DNA of 64,000 bases from Candidatus Collierbacteria bacterium GW2011_GWB2_45_17. GTDB lineage: Bacteria; Patescibacteriota; Microgenomatia; UBA1400; MFAQ01. The DNA lies in the NCBI GenBank assembly GCA_001001485.1, contig LCKO01000002.1, positions 47,567 through 111,566 of the forward strand, read 5' to 3'. The notes beneath the pieces are model-generated. The model made no database searches. It worked only from the letters and a program-made list of their open reading frames with translations, and had not been told where the DNA came from. Within the stretch, counting starts at the first letter, position 1; each line of letters begins with the position of its first letter. The position numbers were made by a program, and so were the translations under genes. Of this stretch, positions 1,705-39,077 are shown piece after piece.

Positions 1705-2790
1705 TTATACTACTCCCAGGCTCGGTTCCGGCCTCAAATCCAATTCTGAGCCTTCCGGCCGCAATATTGCCGCCGCACCTACCATGGCGGCATTATCTCC
1801 ACAATACTTTAATTCCGGAACGTAGAACTTTAAACCAGCATTTTCAACAGCAACTTTCAACAGCTCTCTCAGCATTTTATTCGCCGCCACTCCTCCAGCC
1901 AAAATTACATCTTTTGGCTTAAACTTCTCGACCGCGGCCATTGTTTTTTTGACCAATACTTCCGTCACCGCCTCGCTAAATTCCCTCGCCACCAAATTTG
2001 TATAACTAACAACTGTCATCTGAGAACTGTTATCTAAAATCTGAGATCTATTTTCCACCATTCTAGCCACCGCCGCCTTGATACCCGAGAAACTCATCTC
2101 CAATCCTGGATCATGAAGCAACGGTCTGGGTAACTTAAATTTGTTTTTATTTAGATTCCACTCTTCCTCGGTCACCTTACTCGCTGCTTTATCTACTTCT
2201 GGTCCACCAGGGTAGGGAAGACCAAGTAGTCGAGCTGTCTTGTCAAATGCTTCACCGGCCGCATCATCTCTCGTCCCTCCAATCCATGTCCATTTCAAAA
2301 GACTTTCCAAAAGAATCAAATCGGTGTGTCCACCACTTACCACCAGTCCCACCGCCGGCAGATGGGGAATATCGTAGAAATTTTCAATATCTTGAGTTCT
2401 TGAGTTCTTGAGTTCTTGAGTTTTTTCTCCAACTATCCAATTCGCCATCACATGTGCCGCCATGTGATTTACCTTAAGTAGTGGTTTTTTCCACGCCCAA
2501 GCCAGTACCTTGGCCGTCTCCACGCCTATCAGCAAACTTCCCATCAACCCCGGTCCGTAACTTACTGCCACCGCGTCTATTTCCTCGCCCTTGATAGCTT
2601 CGGTAATCACCGGAATGATACTTTTTATCTGCTCCCTCGCCGCCACCTCCGGAACGATACCACCATATTTCTTTTGCATCTCCACCGAACTGGCTACAAC
2701 ATTGCTGATCACTCTCACTCCGCCACCAAAACTCTCTACCACCGCCGCGGCCGTCTCGTCACATGTCGATTCAATAGCCAGTACCTTCAT
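1705..2790 (-). CDS. tsaD: tRNA N6-adenosine threonylcarbamoyltransferase TsaD (Kae1/Gcp family)
   Basis: N-term MKVLAIESTCDETAAAVV, His pair HMAAHV, VSGGHTDL motif; 361 aa; carries in-frame CTTGAGTT x4 insert. Confidence 0.9.
   Translation of the reverse strand: MKVLAIESTCDETAAAVVESFGGGVRVISNVVASSVEMQKKYGGIVPEVAAREQIKSIIPVITEAIKGEEIDAVAVSYGPGLMGSLLIGVETAKVLAWAWKKPLLKVNHMAAHVMANWIVGEKTQELKNSRTQDIENFYDIPHLPAVGLVVSGGHTDLILLESLLKWTWIGGTRDDAAGEAFDKTARLLGLPYPGGPEVDKAASKVTEEEWNLNKNKFKLPRPLLHDPGLEMSFSGIKAAVARMVENRSQILDNSSQMTVVSYTNLVAREFSEAVTEVLVKKTMAAVEKFKPKDVILAGGVAANKMLRELLKVAVENAGLKFYVPELKYCGDNAAMVGAAAILRPEGSELDLRPEPSLGVV
2391..2422 (+). repeat. Family B repeat copy B1: perfect 4x tandem octamer CTTGAGTT, in-frame inside tsaD (encodes KTQELKNSRTQD)
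   Basis: Read directly: cttgagtt x4 followed by ttttt; related copies at 20741 and 45925. Confidence 0.9.
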
Positions 2791-8169: not shown

Positions 8170-8189
8170 TTTTTTTATATACTTAATCT

Positions 8190-11100
8190 ATGGCTGCCCC
8201 CAAATACTCTGTTTTACAGATTCGTCCCGCCAAAGACTCTCTTACCGGTCAGGCCGCCTTTATTGAATTTCTATCTTCCCTCAGAACTGCCCTAAAAGCC
8301 GGTTTTGTGGATCGACTTCTGGGGACTTTCGACACTATCTGTCTGGAAATAGTTAACCTAAACCAAACCACCTACTACATTCTTTCCTGTCCTGAACGTT
8401 TGGAACATCTGGTCCGTGCCCAAATCGCGGCTCAGTACCCAACGGCTTTGATCACGCCCATGACCGATTATCTATCCGACTGGCTGAGTCACGGACAGAC
8501 TTCTTTGGGTCAACTGGTTCTTACCGGACCATCTCATCTTTCCTTGAACAACACTTTGGACGACAAGGTCGACCAGATGGCTTCGATTCTAGGCAGTCTC
8601 GCTCGAATTCCGGCTGGACAAGCCGGAATTATCCAAATCTGTCTTTTTGCCGGACCCAAGAACTGGCAAAAAGCTGTCCGTTCTAGCCTTGAAATTGTTA
8701 CTCCGGCTACGGCTACCGATCCGGCCAAAAGTAAACCCAGTCCCTATAAAGCCATTATCGAAAAGAAACTAGCCTACCCTGCCTACGCTTGTGATATCCG
8801 CTTGGCCGCTATCACTCCAAATTTACACACCTCCATCCAGCTTTTGACACAGCTTGCCGCCGCTTTTGGCACCTATGCTCTTTCGGAAGGGAACAGTCTT
8901 GCTTTAAAAATTCCCAAATCTGCCGGATCTCTCGAAAAACTTCGTCGCATGATGATCGATCGTTCAGCCAAATACTCAAACCAATATCAGTACTTAAACT
9001 ATGGCGAGATAACCGCCATGTTTCACTTACCCGGTGTTTTATTGGCTCCCATCAAGGGAATTGCTTGGGGTAAGACCCTCAAGGGCGAAGCCCCGACCAA
9101 CTTGCCGGTCAACGAGGGTATCACGGCGAGCGAACAAAAACTTTATAATTTTTTCGCCGTCACCGAATACAAAAATCACTTAGCCGTCTTTGGTATGAAG
9201 AAGGGGATTGATCGTTTGCGACATACCTACATTCTAGGAAAGTCAGGTACCGGTAAATCTACCTTAATTGGCCATATGGCTATTAATGACATCCAACATG
9301 GAGAAGGGGTGGCTTTTGTAGATCCACACGGCGATGCCGCCGAAATTCTCTTAGACTATATTCCTGAAAGTCGTATTAATGATGTTGCTTATCTCGACCC
9401 GTCAGTTCCAGGAAAATCATTCTGGATGAATCCGCTTTTTGTCAAAACTCCGGCCCATGGGGAGATGGTCGCCTCGAGCATTGTTTCTATTTTTAGCAAA
9501 CTTTATGGTAATTCCTGGGGACCCCGTCTGGAATACATTCTCAGAAATACTTTATTGACCTTAGTTTACAAACCGGAAACCACCCTCGCCGATGTTCCCC
9601 GCATTCTTACCAATAAAGATTTTCGGGAGAAAGAATGCCTCATTCACGTCACCGATCCTGTCCTCATTAATTTCTGGCGGGATGAATACGACAAATACTC
9701 GGAAAAATTCCAGACCGAAGCTATCGCTCCTATTCTAAACAAAGTTGGTCAGTTTATTACCTCTCCGACTATCCGAGACATTATTAATCATCCCAAGAGT
9801 ACTGTCGATTTTGAGGCAATGATGAACGCCGGGAAAATTATTATTCTCAACCTTCCTCAAGGTAAAATCGGCGAAGACAACGCCGCCTTGCTTGGTGCTA
9901 TGTTCATTTCTCAAATTCAAATCGCGGCCATGAACCGAGCCAACATCAAAGAAGAAGATCGTCGTGAGTTTTTTCTCTATGTTGATGAATTTCAAAACTT
10001 TGCCACCAGCTCCTTTGTCAAAATTCTGTCCGAGGCTCGTAAATACAAACTTGGCTTAATTCTCGCCAATCAATATATTGCCCAACTGCCGGAAGACATC
10101 CAAAACGCGATTTTTGGTAACGTTGGTACCGTCATGAGTTACGTTATCGGGGCCTCCGACGCCGACCGCATCGTGAAGGAATTAAACAATCTCTATACCG
10201 CCGACGACCTTGTTGGACTGGCTAAGTACCAATTGGCTATGAAAATGTCTGTCGATTCCCAAGTCACCCAACCTTTCTCTGCCAACGCACTACCTCTGCC
10301 GGATACCTACATGCACACCAAGGAAAGGGTCTTAGAGGCGACTTACGCCAAATATTATCGCGAAACCAAACCGATGGACATGTCTCAAATCACTGCCCTA
10401 ATGACACCCCCTGCCAAGCGCTTCACCGAGCCGGCCTACGCCCCCAAAGCACTGAGGGAACCTTCAGCGATTGTTTCTCTTGAGGGCCAGGCCTTAGAGA
10501 ATCCTCAATCTGCAAGGCCTGGCCCTGCAGGTAAATCATCATTTCCGTCAAAGGCACCTTACGTGCCTCAGCTTCCCCCAATCATCCCCCGCACCCAACC
10601 CAACCCCTTCAAAATTCCTCCCTCCGGTAAATCTGTCATTCCGAGCAGAGTCGAGAGCGAAGCGCGGCAATCTATTCCCCAGGGCCAGGCCTTAGAGAAT
10701 CCTCAATCTGCAAGGCCTGGCCCTGCAGGTCTCTCTGACCCCTCCCTCGCCGACCTCGATGCTCTTCGCAAAGAAGGTCTCCGCCCCAGTATTGTCGGCT
10801 GTTTTCTAAACGATAAAAAAATTCTTCTGGCCTATCAAAAGTCTTTCAATCAATGGCTTTTGCCTCAGGGGGGAGTGGAAAACAAACAGAATATTAAAGA
10901 TGCCTTTTTTAAGGAACTTGCCGAAGAAGTCACCGACGACTTTCTCAAAACCTGCGACACCGACATTCAATTGGTCGCAGTTGATAAAATCGAATTTCCT
11001 CCCAGCAAGCAAGGTCTTCGCGACATGTCCACCGATTCGGGTGAACCCGTGGTGATGAAAGGCAAGTACTATTATTTTTTTGTGGCCAACTCCAAAAAAA

Positions 11101-11435
11101 CTGAAATTACTCTTGGTGCCACCGAATTTGATGACCTAAAGTGGCTAAACTTCGACGAAGCGTATAAACTAATAAAAGAGACCAATACCGGAGGAAGATT
11201 GAGGATGATCGCCAACCTCCTCCACGTTCTTAAGGACAAAAATCTCTTATCTACCAATCAACCAGAAATTCATGGACCCAAACCCACAACCCAACCTGAA
11301 AGATCAAGAGGAAGTCAGCTACACCCCTCCTCAGTCGTGGGGAACCAATCAGACGACCACGCCCCCTCCATCCTCCTCGACGACCCTCTTGCCAACCTCC
11401 TTGGCAACCCTCGAACCAGCAAACCCGCAAATTAA
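8190..11435 (+). CDS. Multidomain protein: unknown N-domain + TraD/TraG/VirD4-like coupling ATPase (AAA_10 + TraG-D_C-like) + repeat-built linker + C-terminal Nudix hydrolase-like domain
   Basis: Walker A GKSGTGKST, VDPHGD, Walker B/TraG-D_C-like FFLYVDEFQNF..LGLILANQYIAQL; Nudix box-like GGVENKQNIKDAFFKELAEEV; three repeats in-frame in linker. Confidence 0.6.
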   Translation: MAAPKYSVLQIRPAKDSLTGQAAFIEFLSSLRTALKAGFVDRLLGTFDTICLEIVNLNQTTYYILSCPERLEHLVRAQIAAQYPTALITPMTDYLSDWLSHGQTSLGQLVLTGPSHLSLNNTLDDKVDQMASILGSLARIPAGQAGIIQICLFAGPKNWQKAVRSSLEIVTPATATDPAKSKPSPYKAIIEKKLAYPAYACDIRLAAITPNLHTSIQLLTQLAAAFGTYALSEGNSLALKIPKSAGSLEKLRRMMIDRSAKYSNQYQYLNYGEITAMFHLPGVLLAPIKGIAWGKTLKGEAPTNLPVNEGITASEQKLYNFFAVTEYKNHLAVFGMKKGIDRLRHTYILGKSGTGKSTLIGHMAINDIQHGEGVAFVDPHGDAAEILLDYIPESRINDVAYLDPSVPGKSFWMNPLFVKTPAHGEMVASSIVSIFSKLYGNSWGPRLEYILRNTLLTLVYKPETTLADVPRILTNKDFREKECLIHVTDPVLINFWRDEYDKYSEKFQTEAIAPILNKVGQFITSPTIRDIINHPKSTVDFEAMMNAGKIIILNLPQGKIGEDNAALLGAMFISQIQIAAMNRANIKEEDRREFFLYVDEFQNFATSSFVKILSEARKYKLGLILANQYIAQLPEDIQNAIFGNVGTVMSYVIGASDADRIVKELNNLYTADDLVGLAKYQLAMKMSVDSQVTQPFSANALPLPDTYMHTKERVLEATYAKYYRETKPMDMSQITALMTPPAKRFTEPAYAPKALREPSAIVSLEGQALENPQSARPGPAGKSSFPSKAPYVPQLPPIIPRTQPNPFKIPPSGKSVIPSRVESEARQSIPQGQALENPQSARPGPAGLSDPSLADLDALRKEGLRPSIVGCFLNDKKILLAYQKSFNQWLLPQGGVENKQNIKDAFFKELAEEVTDDFLKTCDTDIQLVAVDKIEFPPSKQGLRDMSTDSGEPVVMKGKYYYFFVANSKKTEITLGATEFDDLKWLNFDEAYKLIKETNTGGRLRMIANLLHVLKDKNLLSTNQPEIHGPKPTTQPERSRGSQLHPSSVVGNQSDDHAPSILLDDPLANLLGNPRTSKPAN
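10484..10531 (+). repeat. Family C palindromic repeat copy C1 (GGGCCAGGCCTT-agagaatcctcaatctgc-AAGGCCTGGCCC-tgcagg), in-frame (GQALENPQSARPGPAG)
   Basis: 11-bp perfect inverted repeat arms read directly; identical copy at 10682. Confidence 0.9.
10635..10678 (+). repeat. Family A GTCAT mini-element copy A10 (gtcattccgagcagagtcgagagcgaagcgcggcaatc), in-frame (VIPSRVESEARQSIP)
   Basis: Shares GTCATTCC..GGCAATC termini with copies at 25134 and 51705. Confidence 0.8.
10682..10729 (+). repeat. Family C palindromic repeat copy C2, identical to C1, in-frame
   Basis: Exact 48-nt duplicate of 10484-10531. Confidence 0.9.
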
Positions 11436-20687: not shown

Positions 20688-20722
20688 GTCATTGCGAAGT
20701 CGCTTAAGCGACCGCGGCAATC
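20688..20722 (+). repeat. Family A mini-element copy A2 (gtcattgcgaag-TCGCTTAAGCGA-ccgcggcaatc), 6 nt after stop of upstream gene
   Basis: Internal 12-nt perfect palindrome; same architecture as 25169 copy. Confidence 0.8.
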
Positions 20723-20740: not shown

Positions 20741-20776
20741 CTTGAGTTCTTGATTCCTAGAGTTCTAGAGTTCTTT
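20741..20776 (+). repeat. Family B repeat copy B2 (cttgagtt cttgattc ctagagtt ctagagtt cttttt), intergenic, adjacent to A2
   Basis: Four degenerate 8-mers read directly. Confidence 0.8.
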
Positions 20777-20777
20777 T

Positions 20778-21707
20778 TTACCCCACGTAATACAACACCC
20801 CGATCACCATTACCCCCCACGAAATTACCGTGGCCATCAGCGGTTTGTCGGACAGCAGAATTCTCTCCGGACTTTCACCCTCATTTCTTTCGTAAATCAG
20901 TTGTAGATATCTCATAATGCCGTAAACCACAAAGGGAATGGTGACCATCAGCCATTTTTCCGAGATCAGTGTTCTCGGTAGTATGGAAATAATATCCAGA
21001 GCTCTACCGTCCGGAATAATTCTCGGGTGATTGAAAGTAAACAAAGCGTAGGTAATCCAAGTTCCGGTCGCGAACATGGCGGTATAAATATCTAAAAGAT
21101 GTTCGGTGTATCTTTTAAGTGTCGCTCTTGTCTCTGCCTCTTTGTAGTTAAGGAGCAGGGTCATCTCGCTTCTTCTTTTTCCTACGGCCAGAAAGAGCGA
21201 GGCCGCGATCACCGTCATTAGAAACCACACATCCATATGCGCCGATATCGTAAAAGCGCCGGCGTAAACTCGGATCAAGTATCCGGAAGCGATCACAATC
21301 ACGTCCACAATCGGGACATTCTTCAAATAAGAGGTGTAAAAAATCTGCAGTATCAAGTAAGCCAGTCCGCTTATAAACAAGTAGTAGTTTATCTGCATGG
21401 CCCATGAAAGTCCCACCACTACCCCTACCACCAAAGAAAAAATGGCCATCGGTATCGGTAATCCCCCCGAAGCAATTGGTCTTGATTTTTTATACGGATG
21501 TTTCCGGTCTGCCTCGACGTCGACTAGATCGTTAAAGATATAAGTGATACTGCTAAAAATCGTAAAAACCAAAAACGCCTGAAAGACTAAGCTAAACGCC
21601 CCTTCTTGAAAAAGAAGACCCGAAAAAACCAAAGCCGCAAAAAGAGCGAAGTTTTTTACCCATTGTCTGGGGCGGACCGTTTTGAATAGCGCCAGGAGTA
21701 TTGCCAT
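20778..21707 (-). CDS. UbiA-family prenyltransferase (decaprenyl-phosphate phosphoribosyltransferase-like)
   Basis: NDLVDVEADRKHPYKKSRPIASG Asp-rich motif; 8-9 TM helices. Confidence 0.7.
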   Translation of the reverse strand: MAILLALFKTVRPRQWVKNFALFAALVFSGLLFQEGAFSLVFQAFLVFTIFSSITYIFNDLVDVEADRKHPYKKSRPIASGGLPIPMAIFSLVVGVVVGLSWAMQINYYLFISGLAYLILQIFYTSYLKNVPIVDVIVIASGYLIRVYAGAFTISAHMDVWFLMTVIAASLFLAVGKRRSEMTLLLNYKEAETRATLKRYTEHLLDIYTAMFATGTWITYALFTFNHPRIIPDGRALDIISILPRTLISEKWLMVTIPFVVYGIMRYLQLIYERNEGESPERILLSDKPLMATVISWGVMVIGVLYYVG

Positions 21708-23073: not shown

Positions 23074-24578
23074 TAAACTTTTTTAGTTGTTACTCTGTAC
23101 TCCATATATCTTCCCATCATCAGACGGGTATGGGCATCGAGACCCGGCAGAGCCGAAAAGAAAAAGCCCACCACCGGTAGCAGAATAAATTCAAAGGGTG
23201 CTAATATTTTTCTCCATACAGGTAAGTTCGTTACTTTTGGTCTGGTTTTTAAATCTATCAATATCATTGCCATCAAGCTGATTAAAGACATGGTCAGGAT
23301 AGCCGAAGATACCTGAGGCAGGGTTTTCCCGATCACGGTTCTGGAAAAAGTCGGATTCAAAAGTGGCGGCATATTCGCTCCTACTGTAATGATGAACCAG
23401 TGAACCGGCCACATAAAATGGTCCTCCATTACCTTAAAAACTCTGATTGTCTTGTCCCAAAAAGGCGCTTCATCATCCAAGATATATCTCTTGATAATGT
23501 AAGCATCATCGCTCGCCCCCCACGCCCATCTTTTTACTTGTTCATAGGTATTGGTGTAAGTGCTCCAGAATCCATTGGCTTCCGCCGCATCGGCCGAAAC
23601 CGAAATAAAGAGCGGCTCTACCTCTACCTCCCCCTTGGTCGCAAAATAGGTTTTAAAGAAAATCCGGTAATCTTCGGGGATGACATCGGTATCCCAGTAG
23701 TCAATCTCATTCATCAATCTCAAACTCAAGGTATAAGTGGAAAAATTTATCAATCTATCGGGTCTCGATAGCTGAGCCATATAAATGACACTACTCATCC
23801 TATTAAATACTCTCATCGGCCAAGGAATTCTTTCAATATTGTTATAAAAAACAATCGCTCCCTGCCAAATCTTCTTGTATCTGTTTGGATCATCGAGGAA
23901 AGAATAGGTCAGCGCCGCCAAATGATTAGGATGCAGAGCCACATCGCAGTCCACCGAAGAGATGGTTAGCTTGTCTATATTCCAATCTCTGTGTTTGTTC
24001 AGTTCTTTCCGGAACTCTTTGCCTACCCATGAGGCATTGCTGGACTTACCCACCACTTCCCCCTCCAGATTGGCTGGATGATAGGTAAAAAATAAACTGG
24101 CAAATGTATCCTTAAATTTTTCTTTGAGCAACTTTTCTCTTTCCGAGTTTATCTCTGCCCCGGCTCTCTCTTCAAAACCTATTATTGGAATAATTTGTTT
24201 GGGACCAATCGTTTGTTTCTTTAACGCCTCCAAGGTTCTTTGTAGAATCTCCCCCGGTTCTTTGAAGGTCGGTAAGACAATCACGTGTTTTACCTCTTTC
24301 CAGTCCGCAAAGCCAAAGACATCTCCCATCCAGTCATACTTTTCCCAAGCCTTTATCCGGTAATAAGACATTACCCCCGCCCAGGCCAAAGACGCCGATC
24401 GGTAAAGCCAGTAGACGTTGAAGGCGATAATGAAGTAGGCGACGCCAATCGGCCAGAAAATCGACCCCCAGATGGGGAACAAAATAAATGTCCAGCTGGT
24501 TAGTCCGGGCAGAATCTCCAAAGCTCTTTGGCTCCCGTTTGGATATCTTTTGATTAAATATCTAAGGAATATAAACAT
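23073..24578 (-). CDS. Membrane-bound glycosyltransferase family 2-like protein
   Basis: N-terminal TMs, GT-A-like core (VLPTFKEP..DCDVALHPNHL), C-terminal TMs. Confidence 0.55.
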   Translation of the reverse strand: MFIFLRYLIKRYPNGSQRALEILPGLTSWTFILFPIWGSIFWPIGVAYFIIAFNVYWLYRSASLAWAGVMSYYRIKAWEKYDWMGDVFGFADWKEVKHVIVLPTFKEPGEILQRTLEALKKQTIGPKQIIPIIGFEERAGAEINSEREKLLKEKFKDTFASLFFTYHPANLEGEVVGKSSNASWVGKEFRKELNKHRDWNIDKLTISSVDCDVALHPNHLAALTYSFLDDPNRYKKIWQGAIVFYNNIERIPWPMRVFNRMSSVIYMAQLSRPDRLINFSTYTLSLRLMNEIDYWDTDVIPEDYRIFFKTYFATKGEVEVEPLFISVSADAAEANGFWSTYTNTYEQVKRWAWGASDDAYIIKRYILDDEAPFWDKTIRVFKVMEDHFMWPVHWFIITVGANMPPLLNPTFSRTVIGKTLPQVSSAILTMSLISLMAMILIDLKTRPKVTNLPVWRKILAPFEFILLPVVGFFFSALPGLDAHTRLMMGRYMEYRVTTKKV

Positions 24579-25411
24579 TTTGTATTTTGGCTAGTGATTT
24601 CTGCCAATTTAGGCAGGTCTAAGTTGAGTTCGGTAGCGACAAACTCAGCTATTATTTTAACATTCGCGGGTATGTTCACCGTCCCACGAAGCGGTTCTGG
24701 CGCTAAATATGGGCTATCCGTCTCCAGCAGTAACCTGTCCAAAGGCACCCTCCTCAGTAGTTCTCTCAGGTTCCCGGCCGTTTTGTAGGTAATGTTTCCA
24801 CAAAAACTGACGTAAAAACCTCGCTCCAGTATCATTTCCAAAAATTCCTCACTCCCGGCAAAACAATGAAATTGCCCCCGTAGGGGCGCATCGCGATGCG
24901 CCCGCCTAAAATTATCCAATTCATCCCTCATCTCCTCCTCCGCCTCCCGCATATGGATCGCCACCGGCAGATTATTCTCCACCGCGAGCTCCATTTGCCT
25001 CCTAAAAAGCTCTATCTGTTTTTCTTTCGTCTTTTTCTCTTTATCGTAGAAAAAATCCAGCCCTATCTCTCCAATTCCCACTACCCTCTTCGAACTTTTT
25101 ATTATTTCCTCTAATTCACCAATTACAACATCTGTCATTCCGGCCAGCGAGCCGGAATCCATCCCATCGTCATTGCGAGGTCGCCTAGGCGACCGTGACA
25201 ATCCATATAAATCTTCAACATTTTCCGGGTGAATCCCCACCAGGCAATACTGCTGATATTTCTCAGCAATCTCCACCGCCAGTTTGGCATCTTCTACACT
25301 GGTCGAGGGAAAGATCACTCTCTCCACTCCGGCTTCTTGGGCCCGCTTCAGCACCTCCCCAATGTCCGAGAATCTCCTGTCCGTCAGATGACAATGCGTA
25401 TCGATTAACAT
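24554..25411 (-). CDS. tatD: TatD-family metal-dependent DNase/hydrolase with in-frame tandem mini-element insertion
   Basis: MLIDTHCHL start, GIHPEN, GEIGLDFFY, ETDSPYL; 25-aa insert LSRSPRRPRNDDGMDSGSLAGMTD encoded by two family-A elements. Confidence 0.85.
   Translation of the reverse strand: MLIDTHCHLTDRRFSDIGEVLKRAQEAGVERVIFPSTSVEDAKLAVEIAEKYQQYCLVGIHPENVEDLYGLSRSPRRPRNDDGMDSGSLAGMTDVVIGELEEIIKSSKRVVGIGEIGLDFFYDKEKKTKEKQIELFRRQMELAVENNLPVAIHMREAEEEMRDELDNFRRAHRDAPLRGQFHCFAGSEEFLEMILERGFYVSFCGNITYKTAGNLRELLRRVPLDRLLLETDSPYLAPEPLRGTVNIPANVKIIAEFVATELNLDLPKLAEITSQNTKCLYSLDI
25134..25159 (+). repeat. Family A mini-element copy A3a (gtcATTCCGGccagcgagCCGGAATc), in-frame in tatD
   Basis: 8-bp inverted arms read directly. 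Confidence 0.8.
25169..25203 (+). repeat. Family A mini-element copy A3b (gtcattgcgagg-TCGCCTAGGCGA-ccgtgacaatc), in-frame in tatD, tandem with A3a
   Basis: Internal 12-nt perfect palindrome; near-twin of 20688 copy. Confidence 0.8.
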
Positions 25412-29609: not shown

Positions 29610-30876
29610 CTGGCTGAAAAACAAACATCTCTTCTTGATTCGATGAAACCTTTTCATTTTTACGTTTGTCTGTGATGTTCGCATAAACCCAATCATAATT
29701 TACCCCGGCAAATGTTTTTAATACTGCCTCCGAAATAATTTTAGCGGCTTTTGGCGGTACAGCCATTCCAATTTGTTTTCTTACGCTTTCTTTTGAACCT
29801 TCAAACACGAAATTGTCGGGAAAGGTTTGAATCCTTGCTCTTTCTCTGTTTGTTAAGGCTCTGTTTTCACTCCAATGATATCCGTGCGTTCCCCCACCTC
29901 CACTTCCAGTAATTGTATATGACGGTTTATCTTGGTGGAGCCTTTTATAGATTTGGCTTAATTTTGCCCCTTTTACATTCAGCTGTAGATATTTAGGAAT
30001 TGCTGAGTACCAAGCATTTTCACCTGGAGGTATATACTTTAATCTTTCTTCGACAATTTTTGATTGTGCGGTCATTTCGTTATTGGGAGCGTCTCTTTCA
30101 ATCGGAGGATTTTCTATGGCGTACTTAGCTGAAATATATTTGTTTGCGGATATGGGCGCTGGAACTCTAAATTCCAACCCCAAATCTTTTCTAATTCCTA
30201 TTATTACCACTCTGTGACGAGTTTGTGGTACCCCGTACTCTTCGAATTTATATTGATGTGCCGTAATTCTGTATCCTTCTCCAGCGTCTTCTAGATCCTC
30301 CAATATTTTTTCAAAGGCCCTACCACCATTGGCACTCTGCAGGCCACTAACATTTTCAGCCATAAACCACTTTGGATTATGTATATTTATGGCTTTGACA
30401 CCAAAGTTATACAAGGGGCCAAATTTTCCATTGAAGCCTTTTTGCTCGCCTACAACACTAAAATCATTGCATGGAAACCCAAAAGCCAAAACATCAAACG
30501 ACGGAACTTTTCTGAAATCAATTGTTTCGACCGGAGCACAAACTACTTTTGACATGTCACCGTGATGGATATTTTTTGCGTATGTTTTACACGTATTCTC
30601 ATCTATGTCATTCGCCCAAACAGGCTCAATTTCGTATATACTACCCGTTGAGTCAACAATCCTCGATGATTTTGCTCCAAAGGATAATCCTCCGGGGCCA
30701 CAAAATAGTTCAGCAAGTCTAAACTTTGTCGAATTGTTTTTTTGAATTCTATCAGCTTTCACAAGATTAAACATTCGTATAATATTTGGATATATATTAA
30801 GTAAAGCAGAATAGAAATCACGTGTCAAGCGGCACGCCGTTTGGCCAGCAGTGATTTTTGAATTCGCAAGTGGCAC
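29593..30876 (-). CDS. DNA (cytosine-5)-methyltransferase
   Basis: Motif I FCGPGG, motif IV GFPCNDFS, ENV motif FMAENVSGL; real start possibly internal Met (MFNLVK) removing overlap with upstream helicase. Confidence 0.85.
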   Translation of the reverse strand: MPLANSKITAGQTACRLTRDFYSALLNIYPNIIRMFNLVKADRIQKNNSTKFRLAELFCGPGGLSFGAKSSRIVDSTGSIYEIEPVWANDIDENTCKTYAKNIHHGDMSKVVCAPVETIDFRKVPSFDVLAFGFPCNDFSVVGEQKGFNGKFGPLYNFGVKAINIHNPKWFMAENVSGLQSANGGRAFEKILEDLEDAGEGYRITAHQYKFEEYGVPQTRHRVVIIGIRKDLGLEFRVPAPISANKYISAKYAIENPPIERDAPNNEMTAQSKIVEERLKYIPPGENAWYSAIPKYLQLNVKGAKLSQIYKRLHQDKPSYTITGSGGGGTHGYHWSENRALTNRERARIQTFPDNFVFEGSKESVRKQIGMAVPPKAAKIISEAVLKTFAGVNYDWVYANITDKRKNEKVSSNQEEMFVFQPAIVAG

Positions 30877-33800
30877 AGGTGGTGTAGACTGTAGTCCGGT
30901 CGAACTTTAGCTTCCGAATATCGGCCACCGAAGCTTTGATCACTTCTTTCAGCTCGCCCACTTCCTCCTCCGTGATATTAAAGTGTTCCCTTTTGAAAAC
31001 TCCTCCCTTATCCGGCTCGATAAAGTCGATCACTGACTGGACCACTTTGTATTTGAAGGATTTGTCCAAGTCAGCCAGTATGGTATAGAAAACCAGCTGA
31101 CGCTTGTAATCCCCATCGGAATTTTTGGTATTCCCCTCTATCTCATTCCTACTTTTGGGAGCCCCTGTCTTGTAGTCCGTAAATCGAACGTGTTTATCCT
31201 CCTTACTCGTCAGATCTATCCTATCCGCCTTTCCCGACAGGGGAATATCACCGAGCATTACTGAAGAAGATAGCGAGTCTCCAAATTTCTTCTCGGTAAA
31301 TAGACTCGGCTCAAACTCTTTCTCGTATCGATCATAGTATGCCGATAATATTTCTCTCCCGTGTTCCAATCGTGTCTTGTACTCTGCTTCCGTCAGCACT
31401 TCTCTCGCGAGAGCCACTTCAAAGTCCCGCAGGAAATCTTTTTTGGATTCCAGCTTCTCACCGTTATTCAGCCCCAAATATAGTCGTTCCAGAGCAAAGT
31501 GAACCGCTGTTCCAAAACACATGGGCGGTGCCTTCGCTCGCGGAATCTTGTAGAGGTTATCCAGCTTAAATTTATACGGACACTTGAGAAACGTATTTAA
31601 AGCCGTCGGGCTAAGCTTAAAGTCTTTGATGATTTGCAGTAGATACTCTTTCTCACCCTCGTGAATGGTCGGAGCTATTGGTACTTGCATTAGAGAGGCC
31701 AGAATCTTGGCCGCTTTTTTCTCCAGTCCTAACGTTTTAATTTTCTTTATTGTTTCTTTTGGCAGGTCTGAGAGAAACAGGGATGGATACACCATCTTTA
31801 CCGAAGAGCTGTACTTGGTAGAGCCTACTATATATAGCTCCTGCTTCGCCCGCGTCATGGCGACATAAAAAAGTCTTCGCTCCTCCGCATTCTTATCCTC
31901 CTTACTCACATCCTGCTCGTTGATGATTCCCGGTGGCAATTTGATCATCTGGCGCCTGCTGGTATTTCCCCAGTGAGTATCGGCGAAGCGATAAATGTAA
32001 ACCAGTTTCCACTCCAAGCCCTTGGCCTTGTGCGCCGTTGTCAGGGTTACGGCTTTGGTATCCGACACTAGTGTTTGCTCCGGCAGTTTCAGCCCGTTCT
32101 CTTCCATAATTCCAAGGTTAAAAACATAGCCAAAAATATCTAGACCAGAAGTTGCCGCCGCTTGTGCCTTAACATCTTCATAGAGAGTGCCAAAACGATT
32201 TAACTCGATGATCGGCTGGGGGAGAGCCAGAACATAATCAAGGAGCCCCGATTCTTGAAAAATAATCTGAAACATCTCCGGCAGAGTGTGAGAGGCCGAG
32301 CGCGAGTTCCACGACACCAGCAGATTAAACTTCTCTATCAATTCTCTATCAATCTCCGGATGAGCGTCTTGCAGGCTGTCCACCAACGTCTTTCTATTCT
32401 CGTGTGCATATCTGGCTGCTCTTAAAATAGGTAGTGGCTTGAGACCTAAATACGGATAATTCAAAATAGTAAAGAGGTCAATATCATCTACCGGACCCTG
32501 TAAACCGGTCACTACTTTGAGAATCTTCAGAAACTGGCCGACCAAAGGTGTTCTCAGCACATCCGTGCCCCCTTCCAAACGATACGGAATATTTTTTTGT
32601 TTGAAGATATTTATCAGATTATCGATATCTCTGTTTTCTTTGACGATGACCGCCATCTCTTCCGGCGGGATACCTTTCTTTATCTTTTGTTTTATCGACC
32701 GGCAAACAAATTCATCTTCCAGTACGGACGAGCTAAATTTGGCCGTCTTCACCAGCACGTCCCGATATTTCACTTTGGGGTTTAAGGGTGTTTCTCCCAT
32801 AAGGGCGGCGGAAGACTGCAGTAGACTCGGCGTCGAGCGGTAGTTATCTACCAGCTTGACCGAGGTGTGTCCCGGAAATCTTTTTTCAAAGGCCAACAAG
32901 TTTTCTTTACTGGCTCCCTGAAAACGGAAGATGGAATTATGAACGACAATGCCATTGGCTATAAAATTGTGAGAGGGGGTGACTTCGAGGTCAAAAACGG
33001 TTTTCACCTTGATTTCTTCAGTTCTGGAAATTATTTTTTCATATTTAATTTCAAACCCATTTAATACTGGTAAATAATTTCCTATGAGCAGGTTGCCCAT
33101 TTGCATGACTCTTGCAGATCTATGTTGAATTGAATTAGTTCCAATGCTTGACTTTATATCGATAAAGCCAGGCAACTCTCTTTCAAGGTTTTCTGCGATA
33201 CTGAACAATTGTTTTATATCTGTTGAGGTAATCCTAAAACCCTTGCCAATATTTTTGTTTTTCAATTTGAATCCTAATTTAGATAGCTTATCTAACACTT
33301 TTTTATTTGATGTTTGGATATTAATTTCGTGAAGAACCTCTGGGTGTTCAAGAAGACCGACCTTGGCATATTTAGTCCTGTAGCTTCTAGAGCACATCAT
33401 AAAGTTAATCTTCACCCTCCCTTTTCCAAGTGTGGTGGCCTCTCTTGAGTAGTGAGGCTCCATGAGATTTATTCCCAAATCATCGGCCAGTCTTTTTGCA
33501 TTCGAAAGTGTATCAAATTCTGCAAAAATTACCTTTATGTATTCCTGAGAAACTTTACCTCCTCGCGGTTGAAACACTATGGTAGGAATCTGATATTTTA
33601 GAGAATAGATTGTTTCTGCACAGCGAGCTTCCCATTCAGTATTATGTGAGGCGATTCCAACGATTTTATCTGCACCAGATTCCGTTTTAAGTCTAATCGA
33701 CAGACCCCTGGTAATTCCCAAACGCCAACCAACTCCTTCCTTGAACATCAGATAGTTGTACCAATAGCTGGTTTCTTCTCTCGGTGGAATGTAACAGAAC

Positions 33801-34906
33801 ATCTTGTGGTTATCGGTAGCGGTAACAGTTTTACCAGATTCTGTTGTTAGGGTGATTAGTCTTACCTTTTTGGTTTGGGAAAAAACGTTTGTAACCTTAA
33901 TGTATGAGGTATATCCTTTTCCGACGGCAGACAATACAGATTCCCCAATTTGTATATCCTTAATATTTTTTTCTCCTCCTGCTGTATTTATCTTCGTGTC
34001 GCCAGGAAGGCATTGATTGTTGTCTCCCACACAAAAAATATTTGACCTTTCTCCCCAGAAAGACGACAGAGCAAACACCAATCTATTTTGTGCCGAGTTC
34101 GTATCCTGATACTCGTCTACCAGAATGTACTGAAAATTTTCTTCGTATTGTTGTAAAAAATCCGCATCATTTTCAAACGCCTCTACCACCCAATTGATCA
34201 TGTCCTCGAAATCCAGTCTCCCCAATGCTTTTAATTTCTCCTGATATTTTTCGTAGATAAAAAGGAGATCAATATTCTTATTTACCAGCGTTTCCCTTTC
34301 GGTTCTCGCCGTCTTGCTCATTCCCCCTTTCTCTATCTCAAACTCGTCTTTGAGTATCGACACCAGCTCGGAAAACTTCTTCAAAGTAATTCCTTCTCTC
34401 TTGAGGATTGAGATACTGCCGATAATATCCTTGACATACATCAGGGGTGCATTGACGGGCTTCAAGAGTTTAAAAGAATTTTTTTCCAGAACTTCGGAAA
34501 TGAGATTGACTCTTTCCAGCTCTGTCACGTTCTGCATTCCCGCCGGCCTAGCAAACCTGTCCGGATTGTCGGCAATGATCTCATTACACAGTGCATGAAA
34601 GGTGCCGATCTTCACATAGTACCCGTCCTGACCGATAAGGCTGATGAGACGTTCCTTCATTTCTCTTGCCGCCGCATCGGTGTAGGTTAGGGCAAGAATT
34701 GAGGATGGTTCGGTATCGGTTTCTTTGAGAATATTGGCAATTCGTACCGTCAGTACTTGCGTTTTCCCGGTACCCGGACCGGCCAGCACCAGTACCGGCC
34801 CTTCGATACTATCGACGGCTTTTTTCTGAGTCGGATTTAATTTTCGATAAGCGGATTCAAAGGCAACCGTTACAGGCATGCCTAATTGTATATCGAAAAA
34901 AGTCAT
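30818..34906 (-). CDS. UvrD-family helicase fused to C-terminal PD-(D/E)XK / Cas4-like Fe-S nuclease, interrupted by an intein (1362 aa precursor)
   Basis: Walker A AGPGTGKT, motif II LVDEYQDTN, motif III split VGDNNQ|intein|SIFRFQGA; C-terminal Cys4 (C..CATCEFKNHC). Confidence 0.85.
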   Translation of the reverse strand: MTFFDIQLGMPVTVAFESAYRKLNPTQKKAVDSIEGPVLVLAGPGTGKTQVLTVRIANILKETDTEPSSILALTYTDAAAREMKERLISLIGQDGYYVKIGTFHALCNEIIADNPDRFARPAGMQNVTELERVNLISEVLEKNSFKLLKPVNAPLMYVKDIIGSISILKREGITLKKFSELVSILKDEFEIEKGGMSKTARTERETLVNKNIDLLFIYEKYQEKLKALGRLDFEDMINWVVEAFENDADFLQQYEENFQYILVDEYQDTNSAQNRLVFALSSFWGERSNIFCVGDNNQCLPGDTKINTAGGEKNIKDIQIGESVLSAVGKGYTSYIKVTNVFSQTKKVRLITLTTESGKTVTATDNHKMFCYIPPREETSYWYNYLMFKEGVGWRLGITRGLSIRLKTESGADKIVGIASHNTEWEARCAETIYSLKYQIPTIVFQPRGGKVSQEYIKVIFAEFDTLSNAKRLADDLGINLMEPHYSREATTLGKGRVKINFMMCSRSYRTKYAKVGLLEHPEVLHEINIQTSNKKVLDKLSKLGFKLKNKNIGKGFRITSTDIKQLFSIAENLERELPGFIDIKSSIGTNSIQHRSARVMQMGNLLIGNYLPVLNGFEIKYEKIISRTEEIKVKTVFDLEVTPSHNFIANGIVVHNSIFRFQGASKENLLAFEKRFPGHTSVKLVDNYRSTPSLLQSSAALMGETPLNPKVKYRDVLVKTAKFSSSVLEDEFVCRSIKQKIKKGIPPEEMAVIVKENRDIDNLINIFKQKNIPYRLEGGTDVLRTPLVGQFLKILKVVTGLQGPVDDIDLFTILNYPYLGLKPLPILRAARYAHENRKTLVDSLQDAHPEIDRELIEKFNLLVSWNSRSASHTLPEMFQIIFQESGLLDYVLALPQPIIELNRFGTLYEDVKAQAAATSGLDIFGYVFNLGIMEENGLKLPEQTLVSDTKAVTLTTAHKAKGLEWKLVYIYRFADTHWGNTSRRQMIKLPPGIINEQDVSKEDKNAEERRLFYVAMTRAKQELYIVGSTKYSSSVKMVYPSLFLSDLPKETIKKIKTLGLEKKAAKILASLMQVPIAPTIHEGEKEYLLQIIKDFKLSPTALNTFLKCPYKFKLDNLYKIPRAKAPPMCFGTAVHFALERLYLGLNNGEKLESKKDFLRDFEVALAREVLTEAEYKTRLEHGREILSAYYDRYEKEFEPSLFTEKKFGDSLSSSVMLGDIPLSGKADRIDLTSKEDKHVRFTDYKTGAPKSRNEIEGNTKNSDGDYKRQLVFYTILADLDKSFKYKVVQSVIDFIEPDKGGVFKREHFNITEEEVGELKEVIKASVADIRKLKFDRTTVYTTCATCEFKNHCWPNGVPLDT
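32936..34012 (-). mobile_element. Intein (359 aa) inserted in helicase motif III
   Basis: Starts CLPGDTKI right after VGDNNQ, block B TATDNH, ends NGIVVHN followed by S; excision restores VGDNNQSIFRFQGA. Confidence 0.8.
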
Positions 34907-34980
34907 TCCTTATTATTTATTTACCGTACCCCCCCCCCACAGTGCTTGTCAAGCTATTATTGATATAAAATATCTACACA

Positions 34981-37028: not shown

Positions 37029-37943
37029 ATGCTGGAATTTGAAAGAAAGAAATTAATTGAAACCGAAATTTATGAAAAACCCCTACCTTTCTTTAACCCA
37101 GAGGTTTACGAAACTCACCTTGGTCTCTCTTATCTCCGGGAGCCAGGTGTCGCCATTATTTCCATTCCTTATGTCGATCTCAGAGGTGCGCAGGGTTTCT
37201 TAGATGGTTTTCCCCGAGAATTGGAATTTTTTAAGTATCTTGAAGACCCCACTCCCATCCCGTCTTCCGAAGCCCTCTGTAAGTTTGCCGGCCAACTTTG
37301 CTTTTTGAGTCATGGCCCTCAGCGGACTATGAACAAAGATGCTCAGAAATATTTTCAAAACATCAAAGAATCTGGTCATGGATCCGTCCTGGAACACGCC
37401 AACATTTCCATTCTGCTTTGGGGAGTTTCGCGGAGCCTCACTCACGAACTGGTCCGCCATCGGGCCGGTTTTGGTTTTTCTCAAGTTTCTCAGCGGTACG
37501 TCGGAGGTCGCACTCTTCGCTTCATCGAGCGACCGGAATATGTCGACGACGCTTTTCTCCATGAACTTTTTGAAGATCGAATTGAAAGGACTCAGCGAGA
37601 ATACGAAGGTATTACCGATTATTTACTGGAAAAACAAAAAGCCGGTTCTGAAATCCTCAGTGCCGACCGTAAAACCGATCTCCGTAAAAAAGTCCGCCAG
37701 GCGGCAAGGTCTCTCTTGCCCAATGAAACCGAAGCCCCGATCGTCGTCACCGGGAATGCCCGAGCCTGGAGACATTTTCTGAACATGCGGGGTAGTGAAC
37801 ATGCCGAAATCGAGATTCGTCGTGCCGCTTTCGAAACCTACCGCTGTCTCTCTCAAGTGGCTCCGCTTCTCTTCGAGGACTTCGGCGTGGCTCACTTGCC
37901 GGACGGCACCCACGGGCTCACCACCCACTTCCCCAAAGTTTAG
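37029..37943 (+). CDS. thyX: FAD-dependent thymidylate synthase ThyX
   Basis: ThyX signature HELVRHRAGFGFSQVSQRY (RHRx7-8S..SQRY). Confidence 0.85.
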   Translation: MLEFERKKLIETEIYEKPLPFFNPEVYETHLGLSYLREPGVAIISIPYVDLRGAQGFLDGFPRELEFFKYLEDPTPIPSSEALCKFAGQLCFLSHGPQRTMNKDAQKYFQNIKESGHGSVLEHANISILLWGVSRSLTHELVRHRAGFGFSQVSQRYVGGRTLRFIERPEYVDDAFLHELFEDRIERTQREYEGITDYLLEKQKAGSEILSADRKTDLRKKVRQAARSLLPNETEAPIVVTGNARAWRHFLNMRGSEHAEIEIRRAAFETYRCLSQVAPLLFEDFGVAHLPDGTHGLTTHFPKV

Positions 37944-39013
37944 CTCTTATTTCCAAACGCCGGGGAAACTGCAAAAGGAATTTCTTCCCAGTCCTTTGAT
38001 TTTCTTACCTTTAGGTTTTTCGCCCAAACCGCGTCCAGAATTTTGGTATCTACTCCCTTGCCCCTTGCCATAGCCCTCAGAGCCAGCAGATCTTTCGGGA
38101 AACACTTCCCTCCAAATCCCTTCAGGGTGGTAATGTCCAAGTGACCGTCAAGAATTCTTTTATCCGCCACCACCATTTTCTTCACCTCTTCGTACTTTAT
38201 CCCCAGCTTTTCACAAATCTCCGCCATCTCATTGGCAAAAATAACTTTAGTCGCCAGAAAACAGTTGGCCATGTACTTCACCATCTCGGCCGAAGTCGGA
38301 TCTGTTTGGTATATCGGGGCCAGCGGTAGCACCGCCTGGTACATCGCCGACACTCTTCGGGATACCTGATCGTTGCTCGCTCCTATTACAATCCTGTCCG
38401 CATTGACAAAGTCTTGTAGAAATGAAGCTTCCCTCAGAAACTCGGGGTTAAAACAAAACAAACTCTCCGGATACTTCCTGATGTAGCCCGCCGTCGTTCC
38501 AGGAACTACTGTCGACTTGATAATGATGATTTTATCGGTACCCTTAGTCAGTTTAGCCAGGATCTTCATATTTTCATCCATAATCGATAGATCTATTCCC
38601 GACTCGTCTTCCCTAATGGGGGTTGGTAAGCAAACGAAAATATAATCGGACTTATCTACCACCTCTGCTAAAGACTCAAAATCTTTATATTTATCGTAAA
38701 CATGGATCTCGTGATTGGAAAAGCCATACTCCACCGCCTGCCCCACAAAGCCGTAGCCAATAATCCCAATTCGGAACTTTCTCTTAGTACTAAAATTTCC
38801 GCTTTGAATCACCGGCATCACCCCTCTGGCACCACCACTGTTTTGCTGTAATCTTCCCTTATCAATCAAAGTTTTTACATACTGGTGAATGGTGGGGACG
38901 CTTCTTTTAAACTTCTTGGCAATTTCCTCCAAGGTTGGCGAAAACTGATTTGCTTGATAATATTCTTCGATGAAATCAAGAATCTGCTTTTGTTTGGGGG
39001 TTATACCTAACAT
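37940..39013 (-). CDS. Fusion of LexA-type winged-HTH DNA-binding domain with UDP-glucose/GDP-mannose dehydrogenase-family NAD-binding and central domains (no obvious C-terminal UDP-binding domain)
   Basis: N-term LGITPKQKQILDFIEEYYQANQFSPTLEEIAKKF..TIHQYVKTLIDKG resembles LexA N-domain; then Rossmann IGIIGYGFVGQA and UDPG-DH central-domain-like region. Confidence 0.55.
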   Translation of the reverse strand: MLGITPKQKQILDFIEEYYQANQFSPTLEEIAKKFKRSVPTIHQYVKTLIDKGRLQQNSGGARGVMPVIQSGNFSTKRKFRIGIIGYGFVGQAVEYGFSNHEIHVYDKYKDFESLAEVVDKSDYIFVCLPTPIREDESGIDLSIMDENMKILAKLTKGTDKIIIIKSTVVPGTTAGYIRKYPESLFCFNPEFLREASFLQDFVNADRIVIGASNDQVSRRVSAMYQAVLPLAPIYQTDPTSAEMVKYMANCFLATKVIFANEMAEICEKLGIKYEEVKKMVVADKRILDGHLDITTLKGFGGKCFPKDLLALRAMARGKGVDTKILDAVWAKNLKVRKSKDWEEIPFAVSPAFGNKS

Positions 39014-39077
39014 ATTACTTATAATTTACTAATATTATTCATATTAATCCTATATTTTCACTCTGTCAAACAATTTT

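Follow-up and report, generated by a model that had tools for sequence, protein, structure and literature searches.

An octamer array inside tsaD of Candidatus Collierbacteria as the probable core of a dispersed, strand-polar 36-nt module

The 64-kb stretch of DNA analysed here (positions 1-64000, referred to as the window) comes from a groundwater metagenome-assembled genome (MAG) of Candidatus Collierbacteria, in the Candidate Phyla Radiation (CPR)/Patescibacteria, and carries on its plus strand, at 2391-2422, a perfect array of four octamers, (CTTGAGTT)x4, inside the minus-strand gene tsaD. We consider it probable that this array is the core of a 36-nt module belonging to a dispersed, strand-polar family of Collierbacteria, and that the module is a DNA or RNA element in a loop predicted to be disordered, and neither a selected peptide nor a switch. 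The evidence for this is the recurrence of the same block in unrelated genes and spacers, its polarity with respect to the two strands, and a pattern of substitutions which follows the octamer and not the codon.

The octamer array in tsaD

The four octamers have zero mismatches, and Tandem Repeats Finder (TRF) reports the array at 2390-2422 with period 8, 4.1 copies and 100% matches. The surrounding open reading frame (ORF) of 361 amino acids (aa) is identified as TsaD by matches to TsaD chains in the PDB (E about 4e-62 over residues 1-359) and has Pfam PF00814 on record. The array encodes KTQELKNSRTQD and is flanked by HMAAHV and VSGGHTDL, so that both the sequence and the TRF result confirm the perfect four-octamer array which an earlier note on this DNA had placed between these two motifs. 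TsaD is the enzyme of the universal t6A37 tRNA modification.

1705-2790, minus strand: tsaD (tRNA N6-adenosine threonylcarbamoyltransferase), 361 aa, with PDB and Pfam matches
2389-2424, minus strand: 36-nt octamer module in tsaD, coding strand AA(AACTCAAG)4AT, codons K T Q E L K N S R T Q D

Short perfect repeats may be mis-assembled, but this array is shorter than a read and recurs across independent assemblies. Independent assemblies contributed 24 contigs on which the identical 361-aa protein is called, and the array is therefore real; it is also present at the equivalent place in tsaD orthologs from other genomes, which come from different samples and assemblers. We give an assembly or sequencing artefact practically no weight. 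Frame-breaking copy numbers, which the earlier note had named as a sign of such an artefact, do not occur among the states seen (0, 1 and 4 units), and tsaD is intact throughout.

Frame and length of the conserved block

Read endlessly, the repeat on the coding strand gives AAC TCA AGA ACT CAA GAA CTC AAG without a stop, and since 8 and 3 have no common factor all three frames read the same eight codons, that is, the cyclic peptide NSRTQELK. The opposite strand reads CTT GAG TTC TTG AGT TCT TGA GTT and has TGA in every frame once per 24 nt, so that copies within ORFs can survive in one orientation only. When orthologous and paralogous copies are aligned, the conserved block has sharp edges and is 36 nt long, AR(AACTCAAG)4AY on the coding strand, which makes exactly 12 codons, [KR]TQELKNSRTQD. 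The reading frame is thus kept without any change in the flanks, and the earlier description of a 32-nt insert in need of flanking adjustment has to be replaced by one of AR, four units and AY. As an example, the sufS-like genes of two loci (loci are given as L numbers), L049 and L057, are 70% identical overall and have an identical array core and AT end, the first two module bases being AG vs AA, both within the AR consensus.

The array in tsaD and that in pcrA, another gene of the window, are indeed in the same phase, but this identity tells little, since any frame gives NSRTQELK and the other strand is blocked by TGA. All three phases are present among 30 copies in ORFs (17/8/5), with tsaD and pcrA in the commonest.

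Dispersed copies in Collierbacteria

Within the window, the dimer CTTGAGTTCTTGAGTT occurs nine times at up to two mismatches vs 0.10 expected, a count reached by none of 100 shuffles (0/100), and these matches resolve into three arrays, all on the plus strand, at 2391-2422, 20741-20772 and 45925-45956. The related loci of Collierbacteria type that were covered comprise seven tsaD neighbourhoods, 18 loci from a scan of a genome collection, three UbiA neighbourhoods and four metagenome loci. They hold 45 arrays in addition to the three copies of the window, and 30 of the 45 lie inside ORFs of at least 170 aa. The host ORFs encode TsaD, PcrA, a SufS-like protein, a class-I aminoacyl-tRNA synthetase (aaRS; two sites), a CcdA-like membrane protein and a TrmD-like protein. 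The density is about one module per 20-26 kb, and 42 kb of the genome represented by L005/L088 contain zero octamer arrays.

Four units are found in 28 of 41 scored arrays, five in 9, three in 3 and 17 in one, and variation by single units (3, 4, 5, 17) is confined to non-coding copies, the coding copies being without it. The 17-unit (CTTGAGTT) array (L073, 7124-7260) is non-coding, lies about 200 bp from a tRNA-Arg gene, adjoins sequence resembling a tRNA 3' half and is the sole long expansion in the Collierbacteria set. Over 116 units from 29 arrays, positions T2, G4, A5 and T7 of the unit are almost invariant. In the CTTGAGTT orientation the ATTC/ATTT variant is found in the first unit of 0/29 arrays and in the second unit of 11/29.

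The unit order [CTTGAGTT][CTTGATTC][CTAGAGT.] was found at at least five non-orthologous loci, namely after the UbiA stop in the window, in the CcdA-like ORF (L029/L094), in the TrmD-like ORF (L093), in L092 and after the dnaN stop (L095). This common order of variant units indicates that modules are copied whole. L095 had been considered as an ortholog of the intergenic copy of the window and was rejected, as tblastn found no UbiA or PEGA gene there and the copy follows dnaN.

A full-text literature search for the 16-mer in either orientation retrieved no paper, and the literature on octanucleotide repeats, on small dispersed ones and on repeats of Patescibacteria gave no description of a family of octamer modules. 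Rfam at gathering thresholds found one tRNA only in the whole window, and nothing at the arrays or hairpins. In folding, the sense strand of the module is unstructured (0 kcal/mol), the antisense (CUUGAGUU)4 gives a weak hairpin which is not significant (-6.9 kcal/mol, z -1.3), and composite loci of module and hairpin fold no better than shuffles.

Strand polarity

In each of the scored Collierbacteria-type arrays (41/41) and at 4/4 metagenome loci, the strand with CTTGAGTT is the locally C-rich one, and the hairpins of the GTCATTGCGA type described below lie on the C-rich strand in 28/30 cases in related loci. Long-ORF coding is distributed about 50:50 across the strands of the Collierbacteria-type loci, and in the window the GC skew is negative on the plus strand irrespective of gene direction. 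Orientation-specific insertion, as the earlier note had put forward, is therefore borne out in a form stronger than proposed, since the arrays keep to the C-rich strand despite this even distribution of coding. It follows from the strict polarity that copies in ORFs occur only in genes with a G-rich sense strand. The GC skew is strong (0.1-0.4) and uniform both in the window (1-64000) and in L007/L008 to the left of dnaA.

A heptamer array in L003 (1782-1813) has the same chromosomal polarity with its gene on the other strand, and so stands in the stop-prone orientation; it survives there by virtue of a CGA, which one unit has in place of the in-frame TGA.

The octamer itself is widespread, with 76 matches in the genome scan distributed over many phyla. 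Outside the Collierbacteria group these arrays have variable lengths and no polarity, the same octamer in the control set from other phyla being split 30/28 between the strands, and they are therefore treated as separate phenomena. Among them are inverted pairs of the form (AACTCAAG)n - spacer - (CTTGAGTT)n in L019, L033, L042, L051, L065 and L071 (Chthoniobacterales, Acidobacteriota, Omnitrophota), as well as multi-copy families within single MAGs, such as nine loci without polarity in one Acidobacteriota MAG. In viral contigs the real octamer trimer had 1 match, no more than one of its two shuffled controls (1 and 0 matches).

Constraint on the nucleic acid and on the peptide

Pairwise differences between orthologous tsaD arrays are spread evenly over codon positions 1/2/3 (50/48/42), vs 1646/1032/3990 in the rest of tsaD (Fisher p=3e-12). 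Sorted by position in the octamer AACTCAAG, the differences in the arrays are [28,0,36,0,0,6,0,42]. Pairwise identity is 0.64-0.97 for the arrays vs 0.61-0.79 for the rest of the gene, the arrays being on the whole slightly more conserved. Since the substitutions follow octamer phase and not codon phase, the constraint acts on the nucleic acid and not on the peptide. This pattern argues against a selected peptide and also against a neutral repeat. A cis-acting function would fit it, and so would concerted evolution together with sequence-specific copying.

The suggestion of the earlier note that a tolerated hydrophilic peptide is under selection is contradicted by these octamer-phased substitutions. 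It is true that the insert has been kept in TsaD over deep divergence and that, in the structural model described below, it sits in a surface-type loop, as one would expect of an adaptive hydrophilic or disordered peptide of 12 residues. On the other hand, the evenly spread differences are mostly non-synonymous, synonymous changes are never found in codons such as ACT, CAA and TCA, many relatives have no insert or have unrelated inserts in the same loop, and the same DNA is also found in non-coding spacers. We hold selection at the protein level to be highly improbable.

Unit number and phase variation

With four 8-nt units, tsaD contains a short perfect repeat inside an ORF whose unit is not divisible by 3, which is the classic substrate for slipped-strand changes in octamer number that would switch a contingency gene on and off, and differences of a single unit do exist among the non-coding copies (3, 4, 5, 17). 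No change by a single unit was seen at the tsaD site itself. The filled orthologs all have four units, the identical four-unit protein is called on the 24 contigs mentioned above, and the other states, 0 and 1, differ from the filled one by 24 or 36 nt and are, like it, in-frame. No frameshift at the array was found in the cluster members checked. The split gene P0243/P0244 was considered as a frameshifted tsaD allele and rejected, as its break comes after AVGLVV and not at the array. Of the three features which define a contingency locus, two are absent from the tsaD array, and TsaD is not a typical contingency gene. Phase-variable tsaD, raised in the earlier note, thus finds no support in the states observed, with tsaD intact in each of them, and we judge such a switch to be extremely improbable.

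States of the TsaD loop

The module sits in a hypervariable TsaD loop which is predicted to be disordered, between the HMAAH-bearing helix (residues 109-118) and the strand at 146-152. In the AlphaFold2 (AF2) model the mean predicted local distance difference test (pLDDT) score is 86.5, with 54-63 over residues 121-140, which are nearly all coil with one 3-residue helix. The module is tolerated in tsaD because it comprises 12 codons, is open in all frames on the AACTCAAG strand and lies in this hypervariable, predicted-disordered loop. The loop is 18 residues longer than that of T. maritima TsaD, and part of the excess is IENFYDIPH, which replaces a short segment before LP and which, among 38 aligned orthologs, the window TsaD shares only with P0002-P0004. 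In the same alignment the loop following ANWI is short and plain in P0011, P0019 and P0028, the loops with the octamer peptide are of constant length, and other loops carry a heptamer-type peptide (RSQISDL type) or peptides of the REP-hairpin type (PRNDD; RFPIRSGMTS; REP, repetitive extragenic palindrome).

Three states of the site were found. In the 0-unit state (tsaD of L005) the sequence is GGA GAT GAG and exactly the 36 nt are absent, in the 1-unit state (L091) it is GAA AGA ACT CAA GAT and exactly 24 nt short of the full module, and the 4-unit state is that of seven genomes, in which aa identity goes down to 61%. A neighbour-joining (NJ) tree of 120 TsaD orthologs, calculated without support values, has two clades where the 4-unit state is patchily distributed and filled and empty sisters form pairs, and a third clade with a plain 10-residue loop.

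The one-unit state in L091 would be compatible with the array having arisen in place, through duplication and slippage at the site and independently of the other copies, and slippage could give steps of three units. However, growth unit by unit passes through frameshifted tsaD intermediates, the same 36-nt block with the same ends stands in many unrelated genes and spacers, the variant-unit orders common to non-orthologous loci show copying of whole modules, and local slippage would not yield strand polarity. A local origin is therefore very unlikely.

The tsaD genes of the window and of L004 are 76.6% identical overall, and their third codon positions match in 195/361 cases. Over about 105 nt around the module the identity rises to 96-100% and third positions match in 31/35. 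The two genes are not sisters in the NJ tree, and the IENFYDIPH extension is common to these alone. A near-identical tract of this length, shared with a non-sister lineage, points to homologous recombination of the loop allele, and to judge from this comparison the perfect window array has probably been exchanged within a short recombination tract.

A second variable loop of the window TsaD also contains a repeat-derived insert, from a sibling heptamer family (AGATCTC/AGTTCTC, about 5 units):

2015-2049, minus strand: second repeat-derived tsaD insert, degenerate heptamer array AGATCTC x5 with 7 mismatches, giving RSQILDNSSQM after ARMVEN

The class-I aaRS beside tsaD is of two clearly different types in one genomic position, one in L003, L007, L008 and L009 and the other in L004, L005 and L006, which suggests replacement by a xenolog. 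Octamer modules are found only in the aaRS type of L003, L007, L008 and L009. Some of the genomes concerned are MAGs titled 'uncultured Pseudomonadales' with Collierbacteria-type genes, namely CAYTOI01 (L007/L040/L044/L057/L079) and CAZPFY01 (L008/L029), and probably also those of L012, L025 and L046. The TsaD of CAYTOI01 and CAZPFY01 is 61% identical to that of the window and the gene order is the same, and over the sufS-like gene L046 shows no difference from a Collierbacteria contig. The titles of these records appear to be wrong.

Other copies in the window and REP-like hairpins

Two further copies of the module are present in the window, each with a REP-like hairpin beside it:

45923-45958, minus strand: 36-nt module in the C-terminal linker of pcrA, AG AACTCAAG AAATCAAG AACCCAAG AACTCAAG AC, encoding RTQEIKNPRTQD
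45866-45919, plus strand: REP-like hairpin by the pcrA module, GTCATTGCGA...GGCAATCC, translated on the minus strand as GLPRRTGLINQTPTSRNDG
20741-20772, plus strand: non-coding module copy, CTTGAGTT CTTGATTC CTAGAGTT CTAGAGTT, between convergent genes
20688-20722, plus strand: REP-like hairpin by the non-coding module, missing at the orthologous L090 site

The array core in pcrA (45925-45956) lies in the minus-strand ORF 45767-47740, and the earlier reading that this copy encodes RTQEIKNPRTQD in the orientation and phase of the tsaD copy was correct. Module and hairpin together replace part of a variable linker before the conserved FDEFGEKKRIIVQDWE tail, and the closest PcrA orthologs (57-67% identity) have neither.

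The non-coding copy begins a few bases past the stop of a UbiA-family gene (20778-21707, minus strand), and a terminator and promoter scan around this intergenic copy found nothing. Among orthologs of the UbiA spacer, L090 has the module without a hairpin, L088 has two hairpins and no module, and L089 has neither, which indicates that module and hairpin are separate elements gathering at permissive sites. The hairpin was also considered as an obligatory partner of the array and rejected, as only two of the window copies have one and the module stands alone at the orthologous L090 site. Within 42 kb, the genome of L005/L088 carries 16 hairpins and not a single octamer array.

The hairpin family itself, GTCATTGCGA-(variable stem-loop)-GGCAATC, has seven copies in the 64 kb, all on the plus strand, at 10635, 20688, 25169, 26854, 27349, 45866 and 62870. 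By coordinates, three of these fall in ORFs, that at 10635 in a NUDIX-domain ORF (8187-11435), that at 25169 in a TatD ORF (24554-25411) and that at 45866 in pcrA, the last being the only copy checked as translated. An IscU/NifU-like ORF in L029 (3997-4389, identified by eye) contains the peptide IPGQARNDK, which resembles a translated REP-type hairpin and would be a further repeat read in-frame in a core gene.

Further genes of the window

A minus-strand ORF at 30818-34909 encodes an AddA-like helicase-nuclease with UvrD-helicase, UvrD_C and PDDEXK_1 domains, and is interrupted by an intein (Intein_splicing and Hint matches, about residues 297-658). Another stop-to-stop ORF on the minus strand (37940-39025) has a LexA DNA-binding domain (residues 5-68) followed by UDP-glucose/GDP-mannose dehydrogenase domains, and may represent a fusion or two genes read together.

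Mode of spread and possible function

The most likely mode of spread of the module is a strand-specific copy-and-paste process, with purifying selection as a filter. New copies would arise by a copy-and-paste or conversion process specific for one replication strand, which may act on single-stranded DNA, as may be the case for the REP-like hairpins which stand in the same orientation next to two of the window copies. Of the new copies, purifying selection would then keep only those in spacers and those that fall in-frame in permissive loops of genes with a G-rich sense strand.

Several observations weigh against the view of the module as a dispersed element spread in this way. The polarity was scored against local GC skew and not against a mapped origin, and in L007 and L008 the genes on that side of dnaA where yidC/rpmH lie have, unexpectedly, the G-rich strand as their antisense strand. 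These are minus-strand genes next to dnaA, so that the arrangement is the opposite of the usual origin picture, and either the origin lies elsewhere or the skew polarity is unusual. Many of the counted arrays stand at orthologous sites, so that the counts are not fully independent, and with an NJ tree lacking support values the balance of gains vs losses is uncertain. No terminal inverted repeats or target-site duplication are recognisable at the module, whose junctions are obscured by the AAGA at the end of the unit itself, and no transposase or HUH Pfam match was obtained among about 56 window ORFs, that is, no mobilising enzyme was found in the window. Finally, the perfect arrays at orthologous sites and the invariant unit positions also fit a selected cis-acting function.

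In that alternative the module is a selected cis-acting signal, in which four phased TNGANT cores are read in one orientation, and its role could be that of a polarity motif (similar to KOPS, Chi or AIMS), of a site for an enzyme acting on single-stranded DNA, or of a DNA-uptake-type signal spread via biased recombination. The strict polarity of the arrays is in line with this, as are the four invariant unit positions and the octamer-phased substitutions, the retention of perfect arrays at orthologous sites in genomes about 30% diverged, a consensus which is stable across genomes with TsaD only 61% identical, and the short recombination tract centred on the module. In addition, the window encodes the AddA-like helicase-nuclease and a PilN-domain (type IV pilus assembly) protein. 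However, the density of the module is low and uneven, some orthologous arrays decay (L003, L008), there is no known binding protein, and known polar motifs arise by point mutation and not by 36-nt insertions into essential genes. Concerted evolution among the copies would give the same pattern without a host function. We therefore regard a selected signal as unlikely, although it deserves to be weighed.

It is tempting to speculate further, and we put forward as a tentative possibility, clearly below an even chance, that the module is a previously undescribed, coding-compatible and strand-polar CPR cis element whose four phased TNGANT cores are read by a machinery working on one replication strand. 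Such a machinery would be a transposase or recombinase of single-stranded DNA, an enzyme of translocation or recombination of the kind known from KOPS or Chi, or a DNA uptake system, and it would copy, convert or select the module; tsaD, pcrA and the sufS-like gene would then carry a polar signal inside their reading frames.

Returning to the module as a dispersed, strand-polar element, its presence bears on the biology of these organisms in several ways. The genomes of CPR/Patescibacteria are tiny and have little spare DNA, yet core enzymes (TsaD, PcrA, SufS-like, aaRS, TrmD-like) have members of a short repeat family within their reading frames. The length of 12 codons, together with a strand open in all frames, shows how repeats can colonise coding DNA without cost. 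Inserts of the module type account for some unexplained loops in CPR proteins and can mislead annotation, phylogeny and structure prediction, and the modules allow recombination among lineages to be traced sharply. A sequence-specific process linked to replication, so far undescribed for these organisms, is indicated by the strict polarity and by the conservation in octamer phase. If the module does function as a polar signal, or was left behind by a new mode of mobilisation, it opens a testable question of chromosome biology in uncultivated bacteria.

Comparison with known systems

Contingency loci, as in Haemophilus and Neisseria, have in common with the module a perfect short tandem repeat in an ORF with a unit not divisible by 3. 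They differ in that the module has a fixed unit number, shows no single-unit variation in tsaD and is a block that is a multiple of three. Their hosts usually have a dispensable surface, restriction-modification or virulence function, whereas here the host is the core enzyme TsaD. With the polar motifs KOPS (FtsK-orienting polar sequences), Chi and AIMS (architecture imparting sequences), the module shares a strong strand skew (41/41). Such motifs flip in orientation at the origin and terminus and occur once per few kb; the module occurs about once per 20-26 kb, with zero in one genome.

The strand-specific orientation of REP/REPIN elements with their REP-associated tyrosine transposases (RAYT), and of IS200/IS605 single-strand transposition (PMC6006769, PMC3116915), recalls the polarity of the module, and such an orientation is expected of processes acting on one template strand at the fork. 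The REP-like hairpins beside two of the three window copies share the polarity of the module (28/30). Unlike these systems, the octamer module has no hairpin, a guide or cleavage architecture is not recognisable in it, and no Y1/HUH gene was found in the window.

Archaeal Borgs are reported to have tandem repeats that create new intrinsically disordered regions in proteins and evolve rapidly (PMC9879509). Borg repeats resemble the module as nucleotide repeats in ORFs which add predicted disordered stretches. The module differs from them in that one sequence recurs at many loci with a fixed length and on one strand, and in its conservation between genomes.

Closest in form are the short tandemly repeated repetitive (STRR) sequences of cyanobacteria and the GGGNATC repeats of Xanthomonas and Nostoc, which are dispersed heptamer arrays with four units preferred (PMC4692102). 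Like these, the module is built of dispersed units of 7-8 nt with a preferred number, four units in 28/41 arrays, and the sibling heptamer family (AGATCTC/AGTTCTC) coexists with it, also in tsaD. The heptamer arrays are mainly intergenic, under-represented in ORFs, G-rich and G-quadruplex (G4)-forming (PMC4692102), whereas the module has an 8-nt unit, is A/T-rich and without G4 potential, and has 30/45 arrays in ORFs.

Closest in behaviour are the Rickettsia palindromic elements (RPEs), which are in-frame repeat inserts in protein-coding genes, about 150 bp long, palindromic and counted as MITE-like (miniature inverted-repeat transposable elements; PMC10969869). The module differs from them in its 36 nt of tandem octamers without palindrome or hairpin and in its strict strand polarity, and the likeness to RPE or REP sequences is greater for the neighbouring GTCATTGCGA...GGCAATC hairpins than for the module. 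Nevertheless, the module, like the RPEs, is multi-copy, stands in-frame in unrelated housekeeping genes, adds a peptide where the fold of its host seems to allow it, and is patchily distributed among orthologs.

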